From Patescibacteria group bacterium (GTDB taxonomy: Bacteria; Patescibacteriota; Patescibacteriia; SBBC01; CAIJZX01), in contig JBBTRH010000012.1 in assembly GCA_038065275.1 (NCBI GenBank), positions 14,374 through 78,373 on the forward strand: a DNA stretch of 64,000 nt, written 5' to 3'. This document shows positions 4,074 to 62,345 of the stretch, piece by piece. The position numbers and the translations under genes are program-made. Below the pieces are notes generated by a model. It did no database searches and was not told the DNA's origin. It saw only the letters and a list, made by a program, of their open reading frames with translations. Position 1 is the first letter of the stretch. The number at the start of each line of letters is the position of its first letter.

Positions 4074-4877
4074 TTGACCTGGCTCAACTCTGGTTCGTGG
4101 GTGACGATCGGCGTCATCCTTTTCCTGTGTTTCATCGTCGCTCGGGCGGCGGCTAAGTTTCTGCCCGGCCTCGTCCGTAGCTTATTGGCCAAGCAAGACT
4201 TGGTCGAACGGTACGGCTGGGCCGGGCGCGCCTTCAAGTATCAACGGCTTGTCCCGTGGGTTGACCGGATTCCTATCTCCGCCGACCAGATGACCTGGTT
4301 GCGACTGGGCCTGGTCGGTGGAAGCCTGCTCTGTTTTCGCTTCCAGCTCGATCCGTACATCCTGCCGTTGTACATCATTGGTTGGTTGACCGACTACACC
4401 GATGGTCTTAAAGCCGGCGCTGAAGAACGGCGCCGCGGGCGTCCGACTCGACATGGGAAGTACCTCGACCCGACGATTGACCTGATCTGCTTCACGCTCA
4501 TGGCGGTCGTCCTGGGGCCGTACTACCCGCGCCGACTGTTGATCGCTTTCGCGGTCGCGATTGGCGCCCGGGTCCTCCTGTTCGCCGTCATCTTGGTCGG
4601 ACGACTGTGCCGGCCAACCTGGCGCCGGCGGCTGTCGTCAAACATCTTGCCGAAGACCATCACCGGCGAGGCCAAAGCCGCATTCATCGCCGTCAGTTTC
4701 GGACTGATCATGTTTAGCCGCACGGACCCGACGAATCTGTTCTGGGCCGGCCGGCTGTTGACCATGGCAATCGTCCTCGAGGGCTTCAGCTTGACTCATT
4801 TGGCGCGCCAAGCCTGGCGATCCATCTACGGTCGGCCTCAGCTGTCCATCGTCCCCGCCGATGATCGAACGGGGTAA
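4074..4877 (+). CDS. polytopic membrane protein with a divergent CDP-alcohol phosphatidyltransferase-like motif (DG..AG..G...D...D)
   Basis: TTG start 10 nt after GAAAGGA; ~6 TM helices; motif DYTDGLKAGAEERRRGRPTRHGKYLDPTIDLI. Confidence 0.4.
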   Translation: MTWLNSGSWVTIGVILFLCFIVARAAAKFLPGLVRSLLAKQDLVERYGWAGRAFKYQRLVPWVDRIPISADQMTWLRLGLVGGSLLCFRFQLDPYILPLYIIGWLTDYTDGLKAGAEERRRGRPTRHGKYLDPTIDLICFTLMAVVLGPYYPRRLLIAFAVAIGARVLLFAVILVGRLCRPTWRRRLSSNILPKTITGEAKAAFIAVSFGLIMFSRTDPTNLFWAGRLLTMAIVLEGFSLTHLARQAWRSIYGRPQLSIVPADDRTG

Positions 4878-4967
4878 TGGTGGAACCCCGCATCCGTCCC
4901 GCCCGTCCGGCGGGGCTGGTGCGTGGGACTGAACCTTCACGACCACGTCATTGACGCGGTCGTTTTC

Positions 4968-19726: not shown

Positions 19727-20129
19727 TGGTGGAGATGGCGGGTCTTGCACCCGCGTGGCGACGAACTTCCCGCTGGTACTGTTCACATGCGTAGTCCGCT
19801 GTTGCGATACGTCACCACGTAGACAACGGACGAGAAACCGTGATGACGTTGTTCAGACAATACCGATTGCTAGGACTGAACGGTCTACCAATCGGTCCGA
19901 CTAAATGACACCCGCGATTCCCCAGCCGGAGTCAGGAGACGGATGCGCCGACGCGTTTAGGCGAAGGCGGGAACAAACGACGGGGTCGCGAAAGCGCGAG
20001 CTACCGCGGTCCGAAGTTTGCTGAGAAGTGTATTGGCACTTATCATGTCCGACATTTTTACGAAGTTGTCGGCGTTTCGGCATGGTACCGAGCAGGTTGT
20101 CAAACATCGTTCGACGATTGAACATCCCC
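19727..20129 (-). ncRNA. ssrA: candidate tmRNA (ssrA), ~403 nt
   Basis: 5' GGGGAUG pairs with 3' CAUCUCC; 3' end CGCGGG-UGCAAGA-CCCGCC-AUCUCC-ACCA parallels the E. coli GCGGGUUCAACUCCCGCCAGCUCCACCA; internal frame ..AVARAFATPSFVPAFA-UAA; smpB lies 2 kb away; the T-loop deviates from TTCRA. Confidence 0.45.
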
Positions 20130-20329
20130 TGAACCAGTCGCTAGGTTCACCCCGCACCTTCTCGGTGCGTGGGCTCCGGTTCAGGGCGACGCCCTGAAAA
20201 CGAATAGCGCCTGCTGTAGGGAAGGTCCAAATCTCAAAGAATGGCTGGATTATAGGGCAAAATGCCGGATTTGTCAAGCTCCAGCGCTTGCTGTATACTT
20301 CCTCGTGCTTTACCAGTAACCAGAAGACC

Positions 20330-24945: not shown

Positions 24946-25344
24946 AGTCCTCTCCTTTGTCCTGTCTCCAGGACGACCCTCTCGGGTTATGGAGTGTGTG
25001 AAAGTGCTTCGACCGGTTTGGTCGGTGGGTTCTTATCATGTTGACGAGTTTTTGTCAATGCCCACCCTCTCCGCGTCGCACACTTCGCAAAGTTTATCCC
25101 GCACCCTTGTGGTGCGGGGCTCGTCTGCTTGCTCCCGTTCCAAAGAGTACTGGGGCGGCGTATGAAGCTCCGCCAGTCGCCGCTCAAGCGGGATCCCCCG
25201 CCTTTGGCGGGGTGACAGGAGCTGGCGATATCTATGGTTACACGGCGCGGAGCCACGTAGAAGCGGAGCACTTTACGTGGCGGAGCGGAATCCCGCATCC
25301 TTCCCGAACCTGTCCCGACCTGTCCTGAGCGAAGCCGAGGGAGC

Positions 25345-28093: not shown

Positions 28094-28267
28094 TATAGTT
28101 TTCCGAGTGAAGCTCCACGACTTTGCGGCCGTGCCATTTTGGAATACGGAGTTTTGGGGAGCGAAACTTTCCCCGCCACGAAGGGTGCAGGACAAGAACC
28201 CCGAACCAGTTATGGTTCGGGGCCGCACCGTCCCACCCGTTACTCCGAAACTATACGGCGGAGGCGG

Positions 28268-33582: not shown

Positions 33583-34723
33583 TTACCCGTTTTCGCCGCC
33601 ACCTTCAATTCTCGGCCGTCCGGCTTTGATCCAACGTAAATACGCTTCCATGAACGGCAGGAGGTCGCCGTTGAGCACCTGATCGACTTGCGACGTTTCC
33701 TGTTTGGTACGGTGGTCTTTGACCATCCGATACGGCTGGAGAACGTAGGAACGTATCTGGTTCCCCCAGGCGGCTTCGTGATATTCGCCTCGCAATTGAG
33801 ATTTCTCTTCCGCGCGTTTGGCTAGGCTCAGCTGGTGAAGTTTTGCTTTCAGAATTTTCATCGCCGTCTCCTTGTTTTGCGTCTGCGACCGTTCGTTCTG
33901 TACTGACACCATAATCTTCGTCGGCAAATGGACAACGCGGACCGCCGAATAGGTTGTTTGCACGCTCTGGCCGCCATGACCTGACGATAAGAACGTATCA
34001 ATGCGCAGATCTTTCGGGTCAAGTTTCACTTCCTCAACGTCCTCCAGTTCCGGAATCACTTCAACCAAGGCGAACGAGGTGTGGCGCATTTTTTCCGCGT
34101 CGAACGGCGATATCCGAACTAAGCGGTGGACACCGGCTTCACTTTTCAAGTAGCCAAACGCATACCGACCCTCCACTTCGAAGGTCATGCTCTTGATCCC
34201 CGCTTCGCCGCCTTTAGATTCGTCGAGGATTCTTATTTTCCAGCCCTGCCCGTCCGGCAGGCGGGCGCGTTGTTCGCAAAATCTGAGCAACATCCGCGCC
34301 AGCATCTCCGCCCAGTCCATGGCGTCGGTGCCGCCGGTGCCGGCGTGGACGCTGATGATGGCGTTCGATTGGTCGTGCTCGTCGTTCAGGAGCAAGGTGA
34401 ATTCCAGTTGCCGATATTGCTCCTCAAGTGTACCGATGTGACCTTCGACTTCTTTCCGCTGGCTCTCTTCAGCCATCGCCGCTAGTTCGATCCACGATTG
34501 GACCTCTTGTTCGATCGTCTGCCAGTCGTCAACTTCGTCTTTCAGCGTTTTCAACTGGCGGCTTTTGGCCTCGGCATTTTTCCGGTCCGCCCAAAACTCC
34601 GACGCGTTCATCGCCTCCTCAAGTTCACCGATCTGTTGACGTTTCTGATCGAGGTCAAAGCAAGCCCCGGGCAGAAAGCAGTTTCTGCCGGAGGCTCTCC
34701 AGTCGTCGAATAAGGTCGTTCAT
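33583..34723 (-). CDS. prfB: peptide chain release factor 2 with programmed +1 ribosomal frameshift (CTT TGA C, internal Shine-Dalgarno-like GGGGC 3 nt upstream)
   Basis: frame 0 MNDLIRRLESLRQKLLSARGLL-TGA; +1 frame continues DLDQKRQQIGELEEAMNASEFW..; SPF motif (VRISPFD) and GGQ (SGHGGQSVQ); shift site at 34654-34660 (minus). Confidence 0.85.
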
Positions 34724-34727
34724 GGTG

Positions 34728-34847
34728 TTATATGTGGGCGCAGTCCCGCACCGGAGCGACTGGAGGGAGTGACTGGTGCGTGGGCAAGCCCCGAGCAGAA
34801 GTGATCTTCTGCCGGAGGCTCTCCAGTTTACGTACTAAATCTTGCAT
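34728..34847 (-). other. uORF-2: 40-codon ORF whose first 21 codons duplicate the prfB N-terminus (MQDLVRKLESLRQKITSARGL) but lack the UGA shift site; stop 5 nt before the prfB ATG
   Basis: ~75% nucleotide identity to the first 66 nt of prfB, including the GGGGCTTGC element. Confidence 0.45.
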
Positions 34848-34852
34848 GCGAA

Positions 34853-34933
34853 TTAATAATTGTTGTGGCTTGCCCCGAACCCGAGCGAAGCGAGTGGTTT
34901 GGGGTGCTCCAGGCGTTTAACGAGATCGTTCAT
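34853..34933 (-). other. uORF-3: 27-codon ORF, a third more diverged copy of the prfB 5' end (MNDLVKRLEHPKPLASLGFGASHNNY)
   Basis: begins ATGAACGATCTCGTTAAACGCCTGGAG, compared with ATGAACGACCTTATTCGACGACTGGAG in prfB. Confidence 0.4.
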
Positions 34934-34956
34934 AGTCACAACACCTTACCCTATTT

Positions 34957-35382
34957 CTAATAACGACGCAAACATTGCACCAACTCGGCCGTCATTGTCC
35001 AGCCGCAAATCCCATTCAGCTGTCGTTCACACCTGGCCGATATGTAACAGGCATACTCCGGTCGCGCTTCGCAGGTGGTGATGACTTCGTGGTCGTCGCA
35101 GATTTGCCCGCTACAACCGGTAATGATACACCCGTTACTGGTTCGGCTGTTTGTATTTGTTACAGCCTTCGGGCAAACCGCAAACTCGCAGTTCGGTCCG
35201 GTCCGGACGACCGCGCTACCATCGGGACAAATCTTGGCTTCCGCGGTACAAGCGCGATTAACATGAGAATTATTCGTGACTTTTTGCGGAACTAATGAAA
35301 GGCTCCCCCAGATCAATCCCACCGTCAACAGTGAGAAAACTCCGACAAGGATCAGAAGCCGAGTATTGCCTTGATGATGCAT
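34957..35382 (-). CDS. secreted cysteine-rich small protein (14 Cys; signal anchor then C-rich domain)
   Basis: MHHQGNTRLLILVGVFSLLTVGLIWG signal; patterns CPDGS..NCEF.VCPK, GCIITGCSGQICDD. Confidence 0.4.
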   Translation of the reverse strand: MHHQGNTRLLILVGVFSLLTVGLIWGSLSLVPQKVTNNSHVNRACTAEAKICPDGSAVVRTGPNCEFAVCPKAVTNTNSRTSNGCIITGCSGQICDDHEVITTCEARPEYACYISARCERQLNGICGWTMTAELVQCLRRY

Positions 35383-35417
35383 GCAGGTATTATAGCGAAG
35401 TTTCAACAGAAAAAGAA

Positions 35418-35600
35418 ACCACCCGCGGGCTTTTCTATACCGCGGGTTCAGCCCTCCTGCCCAGCCGGCCCTGAGTTTATCGAAGGGAGGAGGGCGCGGG
35501 GTGGTGGGAGAAACCCGCGGTGTAGCAACAGAGATTGTGAACCGGCTATTTTCGTTCTTCGAGAACTTAAACACCGCGGGTTTCGAAACCCGCGGTGTTT
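35418..35600. terminator. cluster of CCGCGG-containing hairpins, including a perfect 32-nt palindrome aaacaccgcgggtttcgaaacccgcggtgttt (35569-35600) 27 nt downstream of htrA
   Basis: perfect palindrome; two further hairpins (acccgcgg..ccgcgggt at 35420-35446; aaacccgcggtgt repeat at ~35512). Confidence 0.5.
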
Positions 35601-35627
35601 AATATGGTGGTTTGACAGATGGTAGGT

Positions 35628-36824
35628 CTATTTTCTTTCCTCCAGTACGACTTTAACCTCTTTCGTCTCGCCCTTGTGATAAATTGTGAGCGTGACCGTA
35701 TCGCCGGGATTGAACTTGCTCAGCAGGCCAGACAACGATCGATCGGTGTTGATGTCGGCTCCGTTGACCGACAAGATGATATCATTTTCCACAATTCCCG
35801 CTTTATCGGCCGGCGAACCAGGCACCACGGCGACGCTGTTGTCATTCGCCGGTTTGATCAGGGCGCCGTTCTCGACCGGGAGTTTGTCCCGCTCGGCCAT
35901 GGTTTTGGTGATTAAGACGTAGCGGACGCCGAGATAGGCGCGGGTGATTTTACCGTCCTTGGCCACGCTGTCGAGGTCGCGCTTGACGACGTTGGCCGGG
36001 ATGGCGAACCCGATCAGTTGTCCTTGCGAATTAACCGCCGTGTTAATGGCGATGACGCGACCGGTCAGATCGAGGAGCGGGCCGCCGGAGTTTCCGGGGT
36101 TGATGGCGGCGTCCGTCTGAAAGACGTCTTCCAACGTTTCCGATTGTCCGGAATTGTCGCCAGCCGTAATGGTCCGCGCTTTACCGGAGATGATGCCTTT
36201 GGTCACCGTATTCCGGTACTGGCCGAGGGCGTTGCCGATGGCGATGACCGTCTGGCCGCTTTGAACATCATCCGAATTCGATAAGCTCAGCGTCGGCAAA
36301 TCTTTCGCGTCGATTTTTACCACCGCCACGTCGTTGGTCGGATCCTTAGCCACCACCTTGGCATCGTACTTCTTCCCGTCGTTCATGACCACCGTGTAAT
36401 CGGCTTGGTCATCGTCAACCACGTGCTTGTTCGTGACGATCAGCCCGCCGGCGCCGACGACGAAACCGCTCCCGCCGCCGATTTCCTGTTTACCCTGCGG
36501 GACTTGCTGCTGTCCGAACGGCCAACCAAAAAAGTTGTCGAACGGCGAGGTCGGCTGGTTGCTGAAAATCTTCGAATAGTCTTTGGTGATGACGATGCTG
36601 ACGACCGACGGGCTGGCTTTCTTCACCACCTCGACGGTGGCCGAATCTTCTTGGACGGAGAGCGATTGCTTGGCCGTCGGTGAACTGGTCGCCGATCCGC
36701 TGGTGGTGTTGAGCATCCCGGCGCTGACCAGGCCGCCGGCCAGACCGCCGATAGTCAGACTGATCAGGATCGTCAGCCACGGAGTTGGCGTTGACGGGGG
36801 TGGAGAGAAGGTTGGTTTGTCCAT
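35628..36824 (-). CDS. htrA: HtrA/DegP-family serine protease with N-terminal TM anchor and C-terminal PDZ domain
   Basis: catalytic-triad contexts TNKHVV, D..VVKID, GNSGGPLLD; PDZ-like C-terminus. Confidence 0.85.
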   Translation of the reverse strand: MDKPTFSPPPSTPTPWLTILISLTIGGLAGGLVSAGMLNTTSGSATSSPTAKQSLSVQEDSATVEVVKKASPSVVSIVITKDYSKIFSNQPTSPFDNFFGWPFGQQQVPQGKQEIGGGSGFVVGAGGLIVTNKHVVDDDQADYTVVMNDGKKYDAKVVAKDPTNDVAVVKIDAKDLPTLSLSNSDDVQSGQTVIAIGNALGQYRNTVTKGIISGKARTITAGDNSGQSETLEDVFQTDAAINPGNSGGPLLDLTGRVIAINTAVNSQGQLIGFAIPANVVKRDLDSVAKDGKITRAYLGVRYVLITKTMAERDKLPVENGALIKPANDNSVAVVPGSPADKAGIVENDIILSVNGADINTDRSLSGLLSKFNPGDTVTLTIYHKGETKEVKVVLEERK

Positions 36825-39550: not shown

Positions 39551-39910
39551 TTAATAGCTTTCAAGCTTCCACTCAATCTTGTCGCCATTGGTCGTTTGGT
39601 AATCTTTCGCGCCGACTTCAGCTTGTTTACAGTTGACATAGAAAGCCCAGAATTGGCGATCACCCGGTTTCTTGCCATCAATGGCGTTGACGAACCCCTG
39701 GGTGGAGACGTCAACTTGGTGAGTAGACTGGAGCAATTCTAGAGCATTTTTCCCGTCTTGACCAGCGTAAGTTACGCTGTCAGCCGCGGCGACGCAGACG
39801 ACGGTGTTGGCATTCTTTACCGGAACCTTGACGGTCGTTGTTAAACCACAACCGGCACCGACCAAAGCCAGGCTAAGGACGATAATGAGAATTGATGAGA
39901 AACGTTTCAT
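39551..39910 (-). CDS. DUF4430 (BtuG-like) lipoprotein, putative extracellular corrinoid-binding protein
   Basis: lipobox ..LVGAGCG; FWAFYVNCKQAEVGAKDYQTTNGDKIEWK is the DUF4430 hallmark. Confidence 0.65.
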   Translation of the reverse strand: MKRFSSILIIVLSLALVGAGCGLTTTVKVPVKNANTVVCVAAADSVTYAGQDGKNALELLQSTHQVDVSTQGFVNAIDGKKPGDRQFWAFYVNCKQAEVGAKDYQTTNGDKIEWKLESY

Positions 39911-40299
39911 ACTGTTGGTGGGCTTGCCTGGTCCCGGAACGAAGTGACTGGTACCGGGCTAATGATAAATACCCCGCCAACGCGAGTCAGCAGACGAAGT
40001 CCCGAGTAAAACGAGGGATCTAACGTATGCCTTTCCACGAAGGTCTTGTCTTCGACTGAGGTTCGACGGCCTCGATCAGGCGTCCGACTTCCTCCCCCTC
40101 TCCTCTTCGAGGAGAGGGGTGCCCGAAGGGCGGGGTGAGGTCACGGTTGCGGGACAGTTCCGGACTGTGCCCCGTACCTGAGTCCCGTTAGGGACGCAAT
40201 GGCTCGGGGATTCACCGGATTGCCTTCTACTTTCGTATTTAGCTGTCTGGGTCGCTAGGGTCTAAATGCATCATGACGGAATGCTACCAGAACCCCCTA
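39911..40299 (-). ncRNA. 390-nt structured leader; candidate cobalamin riboswitch
   Basis: minus strand contains GGUGAAUCC, ..CUGUCCCGCAACCGUGA.. (compare CCCGCnACUGUnA) and AAGUCGGACGCCUGAUC (B12-box-like), plus several GC hairpins; genomic context (DUF4430, ECF-S, btuR, nrdJ) is B12-related. Confidence 0.3.
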
Positions 40300-61989: not shown

Positions 61990-62345
61990 GTTTCTTGGCG
62001 GCCTAACTCCGCTGCACCATCTATCCACTGGTGGTCGCACCCCGCAGAACACTCACTTTGTTCGTGTCTACGGGGCAGGCCTGGGCTCGAACCAGGGACC
62101 TTACGGATGTGACGGCGCGCTCCCCGGCCCGCTTCGCCTGCGGTTAAAATTAGTAAATAGTTTCTGGTGGGGATGAGAGGATTCGGACCTCTGACCTTTC
62201 CGACCCCGCTGGTGGTCGCACCTGGGCTCGAACCAGGGACCTTACGGATGTGAACCGTACGCTCTGACCAACTGAGTCCCGACGTTCCGTGCGACGGAAG
62301 TCGGGATCCCGACTCTCGCTTAGCGAGACGTCGGGACTACTGTCA
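61990..62345 (-). other. three tandem tRNA-like modules ending ..ACCA (T-arm GGTTCGAGCCC/GGTCCGAATCC plus acceptor 3' strand), one with a TTCACAT anticodon-like loop; none folds into a canonical cloverleaf
   Basis: minus strand: ..GUACGG-UUCACAU-CCGUA-AGGUC-CCUGG-UUCGAGC-CCAGG-GUGCGACCACCA; mini GGGGUCGGAAAGGUCAGAGGUCCGAAUCCUCUCAUCCCCACCA; third copy has a 40-nt hairpin between T-arm and 3' acceptor. Confidence 0.45.

Follow-up and report, generated by a model that had tools for sequence, protein, structure and literature searches.

How would ribosomes be delivered to a programmed frameshift site whose leader is repeated in tandem? The gene prfB, encoding release factor 2 (RF2), is the textbook example of a programmed frameshift used for autoregulation, and until now a single short open reading frame (ORF), referred to here as ORF0, has been taken to make up its leader. 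In the window (the whole stretch of 64,000 nucleotides analysed here, from contig JBBTRH010000012.1 of an uncultured Patescibacteria group bacterium whose source is groundwater of Hainich well H32, run ERR3858126 and related samples), ORF0 is preceded by two upstream ORFs (uORFs) that repeat its 5' end. A preliminary description of this DNA wavered between two interpretations, namely that the uORFs couple or tune initiation, or that they are decaying duplications. The locus represents a real and recurrent variant of the prfB leader, in which tandem ORF0-derived mini-ORFs each carry a conserved stem-loop in place of the shift site, and the variant is probably under selection.

The tandem leader of prfB

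All features of prfB and its leader lie on the minus strand. The RF2 body is encoded in the +1 frame from the first post-shift codon, GAC, to the stop codon (33583..34656) and comprises the Pfam domains PCRF and RF-1, both of which are also present in the longest ATG-started ORF (33583-34611, 342 codons). The genuine ORF0, unit A (34655..34723), has 22 codons plus UGA, encodes MNDLIRRLESLRQKLLSARGLL-stop and is closed by the +1 frameshift site CUU UGA C (CTTTGAC, 34654..34660), with a Shine-Dalgarno (SD)-like GGGG (34665..34668, read from the sequence) located 4 nt 5' of the CUU codon. Joining ORF0 to the +1 frame yields a protein of 379 amino acids that contains both the SPF and the GGQ motif and aligns to solved RF2 structures from residue 2-4 to 363, across the junction (E = 8e-95). 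Given the heptanucleotide, the spacing of the GGGG, the alignment across the junction and the two motifs, the frameshift site is canonical, as the preliminary description had recognized. Unit A shows every sequence feature of the canonical E. coli-type prfB leader, where a short ORF0 ends in CUU UGA C, an SD-like element lies 3-4 nt upstream and the +1 frame gives RF2 with the SPF and GGQ motifs. The arrangement differs from that leader in having one to three extra ORF0-derived mini-ORFs, in a conserved hairpin that replaces the shift site, and in an ORF0 that is not the first ORF of the message and lacks an SD of its own.

Two self-derived units that begin with ATG and lack the UGA shift site indeed precede ORF0, and each repeats its 5' end. 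The uORF of unit B (34728..34847, ATG at 34847) has 39 codons, ends in UAA and encodes MQDLVRKLESLRQKITSARGLPTHQSLPPVAPVRDCAHI-stop; it consists of a 63-nt copy of ORF0, a stem-loop termed HP2, and an AU-rich end with the UAA. The uORF of unit C (34853..34933; ATG at 34933, TAA stop at 34853-34855) has 26 codons and encodes MNDLVKRLEHPKPLASLGFGASHNNY-stop; here the hairpin of ORF0 (HP1) is deleted, and HP2 follows directly after 29 ORF0-like nucleotides, again with an AU-rich end containing the UAA. Units A and B have 65 nt in common at 75% identity and units A and C 30 nt at 77%, while an exact 20-mer common to A and B occurs just twice in the window, with no occurrence expected from shuffles. 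The periods of the array are 124 and 86 nt instead of the roughly 110 bp given initially. The uORF nearer to prfB stops 4 nt before the ORF0 AUG rather than 5: the gap CACC (34724..34727), the proposed restart junction, separates the UAA of uORF B from ORF0, and the 5-nt gap, UUCGC (34848..34852), lies between the UAA of uORF C and the AUG of unit B. Tandem Repeats Finder reported no repeat at the array because the copies are too diverged and of unequal length.

The units were initially regarded as decayed copies, which is true of unit C insofar as it is truncated and has lost HP1; a recognizable HP2 is nevertheless retained, so unit C is not simply decayed. The idea that the unit tail is a decayed copy of the region 3' of the shift site is not supported, as local alignments scored against dinucleotide shuffles gave z values of only -1.6 to +1.2; a likeness noticed by eye between the tail of the relative L003 and the region downstream of the shift site was not borne out by the same test. 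Also rejected was the idea that ribosomes shift a second time, by +1, at the pseudo-site CCC codon. In the window and in the relative L004, the uORF has an open +1 frame that is in phase with ORF0, but this does not hold for the second clade introduced below; the open frame is treated as a coincidence.

The distribution of the arrangement was surveyed over 162 prfB loci from genome and metagenome collections, 74 of which are of the frameshift type, with the CTTTGA heptamer at the same distance from the RF2 body. By RF2 similarity, the host belongs among the Kerfeldbacteria- and Magasanikbacteria-like Patescibacteria. Upstream copies of ORF0, seen at prfB only, occur in five lineages among the 74 loci (the window, L003, L004, L014 and L029), so that the comparison of orthologous loci proposed in the preliminary description returned four other Patescibacteria genomes with such copies; when the opposite strand and the downstream region were tested for ORF0-like ORFs in the same way, there were no matches. 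A single upstream unit precedes ORF0 both in L004, with an RF2 89% identical to that of the window, and in L003 (81% identical); its tail is that of unit B in L004 and of another type in L003. L014 and L029, whose RF2 sequences are 80% identical to each other and 63% identical to that of the window, form a second clade with three and two upstream units, respectively, and the covariance search added a fourth, truncated unit (u0) in L014. A sixth, partial case in the second clade is L195, with an 18-nt fragment of the ORF0 5' end followed by a long TAGGGT/ACCCTA hairpin. Arrays are thus present in 3 of the 10 sampled lineages of the window clade, the other seven (L163, L164, L166, L167, L170, L174 and L176) having a single ORF0, as do L083, L084 and L196. 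The arrangement is conserved in places, yet patchy, and its copy number varies even among close relatives, which the preliminary description did not anticipate.

A long inverted repeat of TAGGGT and ACCCTA motifs, telomere-like in appearance, lies upstream of the prfB leader in the second clade (L014, positions ~2480-2570; L195, ~1600-1820; L196, ~1790-1840). The repeat occurs twice in L195, with the 18-nt ORF0 fragment between the two occurrences, while L196 has only the C-rich half.

The units also bear traces of recombination. Unit B is a hybrid that joins 63 nt of the window ORF0 type, at the 5' end, to an ortholog of the L004 tail. In unit C, the first 29 nt (25/29 identical to the first unit of L004) and the upstream flank are both orthologous to that L004 unit. 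For three genome pairs, the upstream copy is nearer to the single ORF0 of a relative than the functional copy is (L004 u with L163, L003 u with L164, and L195 u with L196), and two ORF0 'alleles' (EHLRDRI... and ESLRQKI...) are spread over single-copy and two-copy genomes. Taken together, the hybrid unit B, the orthology between unit C and L004, the three pairs and the two alleles fit a history of duplication and differential loss, with unequal recombination or gene conversion and with deletion of the HP1 palindrome.

Two hairpins of the repeated module

Two hairpins are associated with the units. HP1 is an inverted repeat of 14-15 bp in unit A (34663..34696, folding energy -21.1 kcal/mol) and recurs in unit B (34787..34820, -21.5 kcal/mol); between the two, paired changes preserve the stem, with A-U replaced by G-C at the loop-closing pair. 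The 3' arm of HP1 holds the SD-like GGGG and stops 2 nt short of CUU, adjacent to the E-site codon. Hairpins of this type, in which the SD-like element is paired with a CCUCC-like segment about 25 nt upstream, are common in Patescibacteria ORF0s: over nucleotides 19-66 of 66 unique ORF0 sequences, the mean folding z-score is -2.2 relative to dinucleotide shuffles, and 59% of the sequences fall below -1.5. These z-scores were calculated for each sequence because the register of HP1 varies; a single fixed register had been tried across 75 sequences and was discarded (best i+j = 90, 63% paired).

Designed hairpins placed upstream, next to the E site, stimulated +1 shifting at CUUUGA when tested in vitro with a bacterial system (PMC6321510). 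HP1 resembles the refolding hairpin of that study in being a stable stem of 14-15 bp with a 4-nt loop, and in that, with CUU in the P site of a CUUUGA site, it extends as far as the first base of the E-site codon. Unlike the designed hairpins, it occurs naturally, includes the SD-like element within its 3' arm and recurs in upstream units that would not shift. HP1 might be followed up as a lead, being a natural example of an E-site-adjacent hairpin at +1 shift sites.

The best-conserved part of the array is the second stem-loop rather than the peptide, a point beyond the preliminary description. HP2 has the form CCCGCACC(AGTC), a loop of 13-25 nt, and (CTCC)GGTGCGGG, and it replaces the shift site in the upstream units. 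In unit B (34745..34784), CCCACGCACC and GGUGCGGG enclose a 22-nt loop (covariance-model match of 74.7 bits), and the hairpin starts at the exact position of the CUU codon in the real ORF0. In unit C (34873..34904), CCCCAAACC and GGGUUCGGGG enclose a 13-nt loop (54 bits), and one pair is altered on both sides relative to the consensus. HP2 is found in eight upstream units, including the HP1-less unit C and u0 of L014, whereas the covariance model detected none in about 190 other loci, single-copy genes among them.

Between the two clades, the HP2 arms are 86-87% identical, compared with 66-70% for RF2 coding DNA, 66% for the ORF0-like part, 47% for the HP2 loop and 44% for the spacer. RNAalifold predicted the stem unaided, with two pairs changed on both sides, each in single sequences; 96% of cells are paired, against 23-46% in slid controls, but the observed score is attained by 82 of 500 shuffles, since there is so little variation in the arms, and formal covariation is weak for the same reason. 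The reading frame over the 5' arm differs between the clades, and in u1 of L014 the 3' arm stands in another frame again, so conservation acts on nucleotides (RNA or DNA) and not on a peptide. The conserved 'APVRD' is the 3' arm translated in one frame, other frames being used elsewhere, and a protein-database search with five uORF peptides called no homologues. An Rfam scan of 34300-35300 returned only a chance-level miRNA match, and a terminator scan of 34500-35700 no terminator-like site, HP2 being without a U tract. In folds of whole units, both HP1 and HP2 form, and the last 15-20 nt, comprising the stop and the next AUG, stay unpaired. With arms more conserved than the gene itself, HP2 constitutes a candidate new RNA motif.

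Related hairpins exist elsewhere in the window: four outside prfB, two of them nested at one site, and one more that is bulged. The nested pair (20125-20188) lies between a consensus promoter and the tmRNA gene, in a leader of about 110 nt. The inner hairpin, GCCCACGCACC-GAGAA-GGTGCGGGG, has arms identical to those of the unit B HP2; the outer one extends with its 3' arm into the first four tmRNA bases and fits the extended HP2 motif on the strand opposite the tmRNA gene. The hairpin at 25095-25121 (minus-strand sequence CCCCGCACC-5 nt-GGTGCGGGATAAAC) matches the arms and flank of HP2 in the distant L029 almost exactly; like those at 28197-28224 and 4868-4938 (the bulged one), it is GC-rich and apparently intergenic. 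The strict HP2 pattern has four matches in the window against 0.33 expected from shuffles. A relaxed pattern has six matches in the 64 kb of the window and five in 947 kb of other Patescibacteria loci, i.e. an approximately 18-fold higher density, and three of those five are the prfB arrays themselves. As HP2-like hairpins occupy three to four other sites in the window, the case for HP2 being specific to prfB is weakened.

The three apparently intergenic hairpins may form a small family resembling repetitive extragenic palindromic (REP) sequences. Like REP/BIME elements, they and the nested pair at 20125-20188 are short, GC-rich, imperfect palindromes at several intergenic sites of one genome. 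The prfB copies differ from such elements in lying within ORFs, at a fixed position of a repeated module that is common to two distant clades; moreover, only a handful of copies is visible in 64 kb, and no RAYT-type gene was seen.

Initiation and the explanations of the array

Frameshift-type prfB genes of these Patescibacteria are probably leaderless, judging from a -10-like box near the ATG and an almost complete absence of SD sequences. Among 60 single-copy loci of this type (prfB loci within L005-L176), 29 have a TANNNT box whose end lies 5-10 nt ahead of the ORF0 ATG, with distance peaks at 6 and 9 nt, compared with 3 of 60 for a control window; an SD core precedes ORF0 in just 2 of the 60. 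In the array, the sole initiation signal is TAAGGTG (34942..34948), 8-9 nt 5' of the unit C ATG, where TAAGGT may be a -10-like box at a leaderless-type distance or AAGGTG a weak SD; a strict promoter scan did not call TAAGGT. Well-placed boxes front the first unit of other arrays as well (TGGTATAAT in L004, with TATAAT, and TGTGATAAT in L003), and TAAGGT shares their distance of 9 nt. The ATGs of units B and A are preceded by neither an SD core nor a well-placed -10-like box, and internal promoters giving each unit a leaderless start were rejected, since internal ATGs lack such boxes, except possibly ORF0 of L014.

The start codon is kept in 10 of 10 upstream units. In nine of ten tails, the stop of the uORF frame falls at -15 to +1 relative to the next ATG, as opposed to 8 of 20 in the other two frames. 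The gaps from stop to next ATG are 5 and 4 nt in the window, 4 nt in L004 and 12 nt in L003, and at four junctions of L014 and L029 stop and start overlap as ATGA; the uORFs of the second clade end in the RF2-specific UGA.

These features suggest as the most likely function, tentatively and with a probability approaching an even chance, a translational relay through the uORFs that would reinitiate at the signal-less ORF0 and tune the input to RF2 autoregulation, its copy number being changed by recombination. Each module consists of an AUG, an ORF0-like mini-ORF with HP1, HP2, and an unstructured AU-rich end, its stop lying 4-12 nt before, or overlapping, the AUG of the next module; the last module is the genuine ORF0 with the +1 site. 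As ribosomes would enter at the 5'-terminal AUG of the leaderless prfB of the relatives, the entry point of an array would be its first module. The uORFs would then be translated in turn, with termination and reinitiation at the adjacent AUG, until ORF0 is reached and the usual choice between RF2-dependent termination and +1 frameshifting is made. Because the start of ORF0 is internal and signal-less, reinitiation after the preceding uORF would be the obvious source of its ribosomes. The number and quality of modules would set the ribosome flow to the autoregulatory site, and HP1 and HP2 would keep the restart regions single-stranded; HP2 may also hold or direct the post-termination ribosome. 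The array itself would arise and change via duplication, unequal recombination or gene conversion, and hairpin deletion.

Termination-reinitiation coupling requires overlaps or very short gaps between ORFs (PMC6728339, PMC10666635). The arrays share with the known cases co-directional ORFs, ATGA overlaps (L014, L029) or gaps of 4-5 nt, and a downstream start without SD; they differ in that the predicted coupling would join tandem paralogs of one regulatory mini-ORF instead of genes for complex subunits. A survey from 2025, which covers prfB frameshifting across over 12,000 genomes, mentions neither duplication nor hairpins nor Patescibacteria, and never uses 'upstream' of an upstream ORF (PMC12421855); in the prfB literature examined, uORFs, leader duplication and hairpins of the HP1 or HP2 type are not described.

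Leader peptides offer another comparison, tnaC being an RF2-sensitive one. As in leader-peptide attenuators, the translation or termination of a short uORF could control the downstream gene; in contrast to them, the array has no terminator or pair of alternative hairpins, no run of regulatory codons and no conserved arrest peptide, and its uORF frames differ between the clades.

Between the two initial interpretations, coupling or tuning of initiation is thus favored, since relatives keep the units and every upstream ATG, since the uORF-frame stop is near or overlaps the next ATG in nine of ten units, and since ORF0 of the array has neither an SD nor the -10 box of single-copy relatives. The alternative retains some truth, as the truncation of unit C and a nonsense codon in u1 of L014 are signs of decay.

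Several observations weigh against the relay. The signal from stops near ATGs is modest, as the AU-rich ends also have stops in other frames and the units are not independent; with about five independent cases, p would be approximately 0.01 (an estimate from the counts). The nonsense codon in u1 of L014, 84 nt before the next ATG, would break the relay, and the upstream ORF of L195 stops 29 nt short of ORF0. The stop codon of the upstream gene lies only 23 nt from the unit C ATG, so an SD-led start (AAGGTG) on a longer co-transcript is equally possible. The seven close lineages with a single ORF0 manage without an array, which is therefore dispensable, and HP2 may belong to a small hairpin family with a more general role. 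Finally, both uORF translation and leaderless transcription are predicted from sequence.

The relay has two main rivals. It is conceivable, if doubtful, that HP2, alone or together with HP1, acts as a cis-acting RNA element, uORF translation being incidental. Such an element could be a binding site for a protein or the ribosome, a processing or stability element, or an attenuator without a U tract; it would belong to a hairpin family that is also found in other leaders (pre-tmRNA), and the ORF0-like pieces would have been carried along by block duplication. An RNA element would account for conservation of the arm sequence itself, beyond pairing, next to a loop and spacer that vary freely, and for the tolerance of G-U pairs on the sense strand. 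Retention of HP2 where HP1 and most of the ORF0 part are gone (unit C and u0 of L014) points the same way, as do the hairpins with identical arms in the tmRNA leader, at 25095-25121 and at 28197-28224, together with the excess of strict matches. However, no Rfam family matches, the region has no U-tract terminator, and the outer copy in the tmRNA leader fits the extended motif on the strand opposite the gene. The flanks of the other array genomes, which are short, contain no HP2-like hairpin outside prfB, and the retention of the ATG in every unit, with stops at the next ATG, would be left unexplained.

The other main rival, an unlikely explanation, albeit one that captures part of the pattern, is that duplication and recombination have recurred at a site rich in palindromes and that the units are their neutral, decaying by-products, tolerated since ORF0 is still reached by ribosomes. 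The conservation of HP2 would then be only apparent, stemming from a genome-wide REP-like repeat kept uniform by other forces, with which the HP2-like hairpins elsewhere in the window would agree. Neutrality is consistent with the patchy distribution (3/10 lineages of the window clade), with copy numbers from 1 to 4, and with the recombinant unit B, the truncated units (C and u0 of L014) and the nonsense codon in u1 of L014. The spacers are of at least three types (HP2, that of L003, and in L195 the TAGGGT/ACCCTA hairpin), which indicates repeated independent duplication. Nevertheless, the HP2 arms exceed the coding sequence of the essential RF2 in conservation between the clades, while the adjacent loop and spacer are nearly random. 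Both second-clade members retain multi-unit arrays at 80% RF2 identity, and the ATGs kept in every unit and the uORF-frame stops at the next ATG also count against neutrality. As direct repeats are easily lost by recombination, their persistence would also suggest selection.

A more far-reaching proposal, which is improbable, regards the HP2-containing uORF modules as a second, undescribed layer of RF2 control and HP2, which also occurs in the pre-tmRNA leader, as the mark of a small regulon of translation-termination and ribosome-rescue genes that a common factor recognizes. Termination at the uORF stops (in one clade, the UGA within AUGA) would then gate reinitiation at ORF0.

Even less probable is a scar of site-specific integration or of another mobile element, whose target would be the prfB 5' end and which would bring a replacement for it; SXT/R391 elements do likewise at prfC. 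The three genome pairs in which the upstream copy is closer to the single ORF0 of a relative, and the variable gene content between htrA and prfB among relatives, would be compatible with a scar. On the other hand, the neighbors are HtrA, a secreted protein with a Cys motif, and ComEC, with no integrase or mobile-element gene nearby, and the inserts measure only 65-124 nt and are tandem rather than flanking a multi-kb element. A viral origin was rejected too: the 18 pattern matches in viral contigs are close to the estimated chance number and cover only the forced hairpin core.

An assembly artefact, raised in the preliminary description and favored only by the general risk of tandem repeats in metagenome assemblies, has a negligible probability, and mis-assembly is excluded as far as sequence goes: a Logan contig and an ENA contig (Hainich groundwater), both from other assemblies and made with different pipelines, match the leader region at 100% identity; copies that are 75-77% identical and of unequal length are too diverged for collapse or expansion; and homologous arrays exist in four or five unrelated metagenome-assembled genomes. 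The idea is thereby effectively refuted.

Neighboring features and significance

The gene between htrA and prfB (34957-35574, minus strand) encodes a secreted or membrane-anchored protein without a Pfam match; its motif C..(A/E)AK.CPDGS.V.R..P.CEFA.CP is conserved in the genes upstream of prfB in L003, L014 and L029. The tmRNA gene and its leader (19727-20129 on the minus strand, and 20125-20290) have an Rfam score of 81.9 bits and, about 110 nt upstream, a TTGACA-17-TATAAT promoter. A match to the cobalamin riboswitch that stays below threshold (40070-40219, minus strand; 20.8 bits against a gathering score of 31.5) is located in the 390-nt 5' region of a DUF4430 gene (ORF 39551-39910) and probably represents a divergent B12 riboswitch. 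A weak covariance match upstream of the same gene (39908-39966) was rejected as an HP2 module; it lies in the same 5' untranslated region, beside the start codon and just 3' of the probable cobalamin aptamer. A further weak Rfam match, to tRNA (62213-62279, minus strand; 32.4 bits, gathering score 29), was not reported by ARAGORN.

In some Patescibacteria, then, the prfB leader is modular and repeated. As the gene is probably leaderless, the delivery of ribosomes to the frameshift site would pass through the upstream mini-ORFs. If the relay is true, these organisms provide a natural system in which the input to autoregulatory frameshifting is tuned by copy number, as well as a test bed for reinitiation on leaderless messages. 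If the array is neutral, it would still constitute a clear case of birth-and-death evolution of a regulatory leader.

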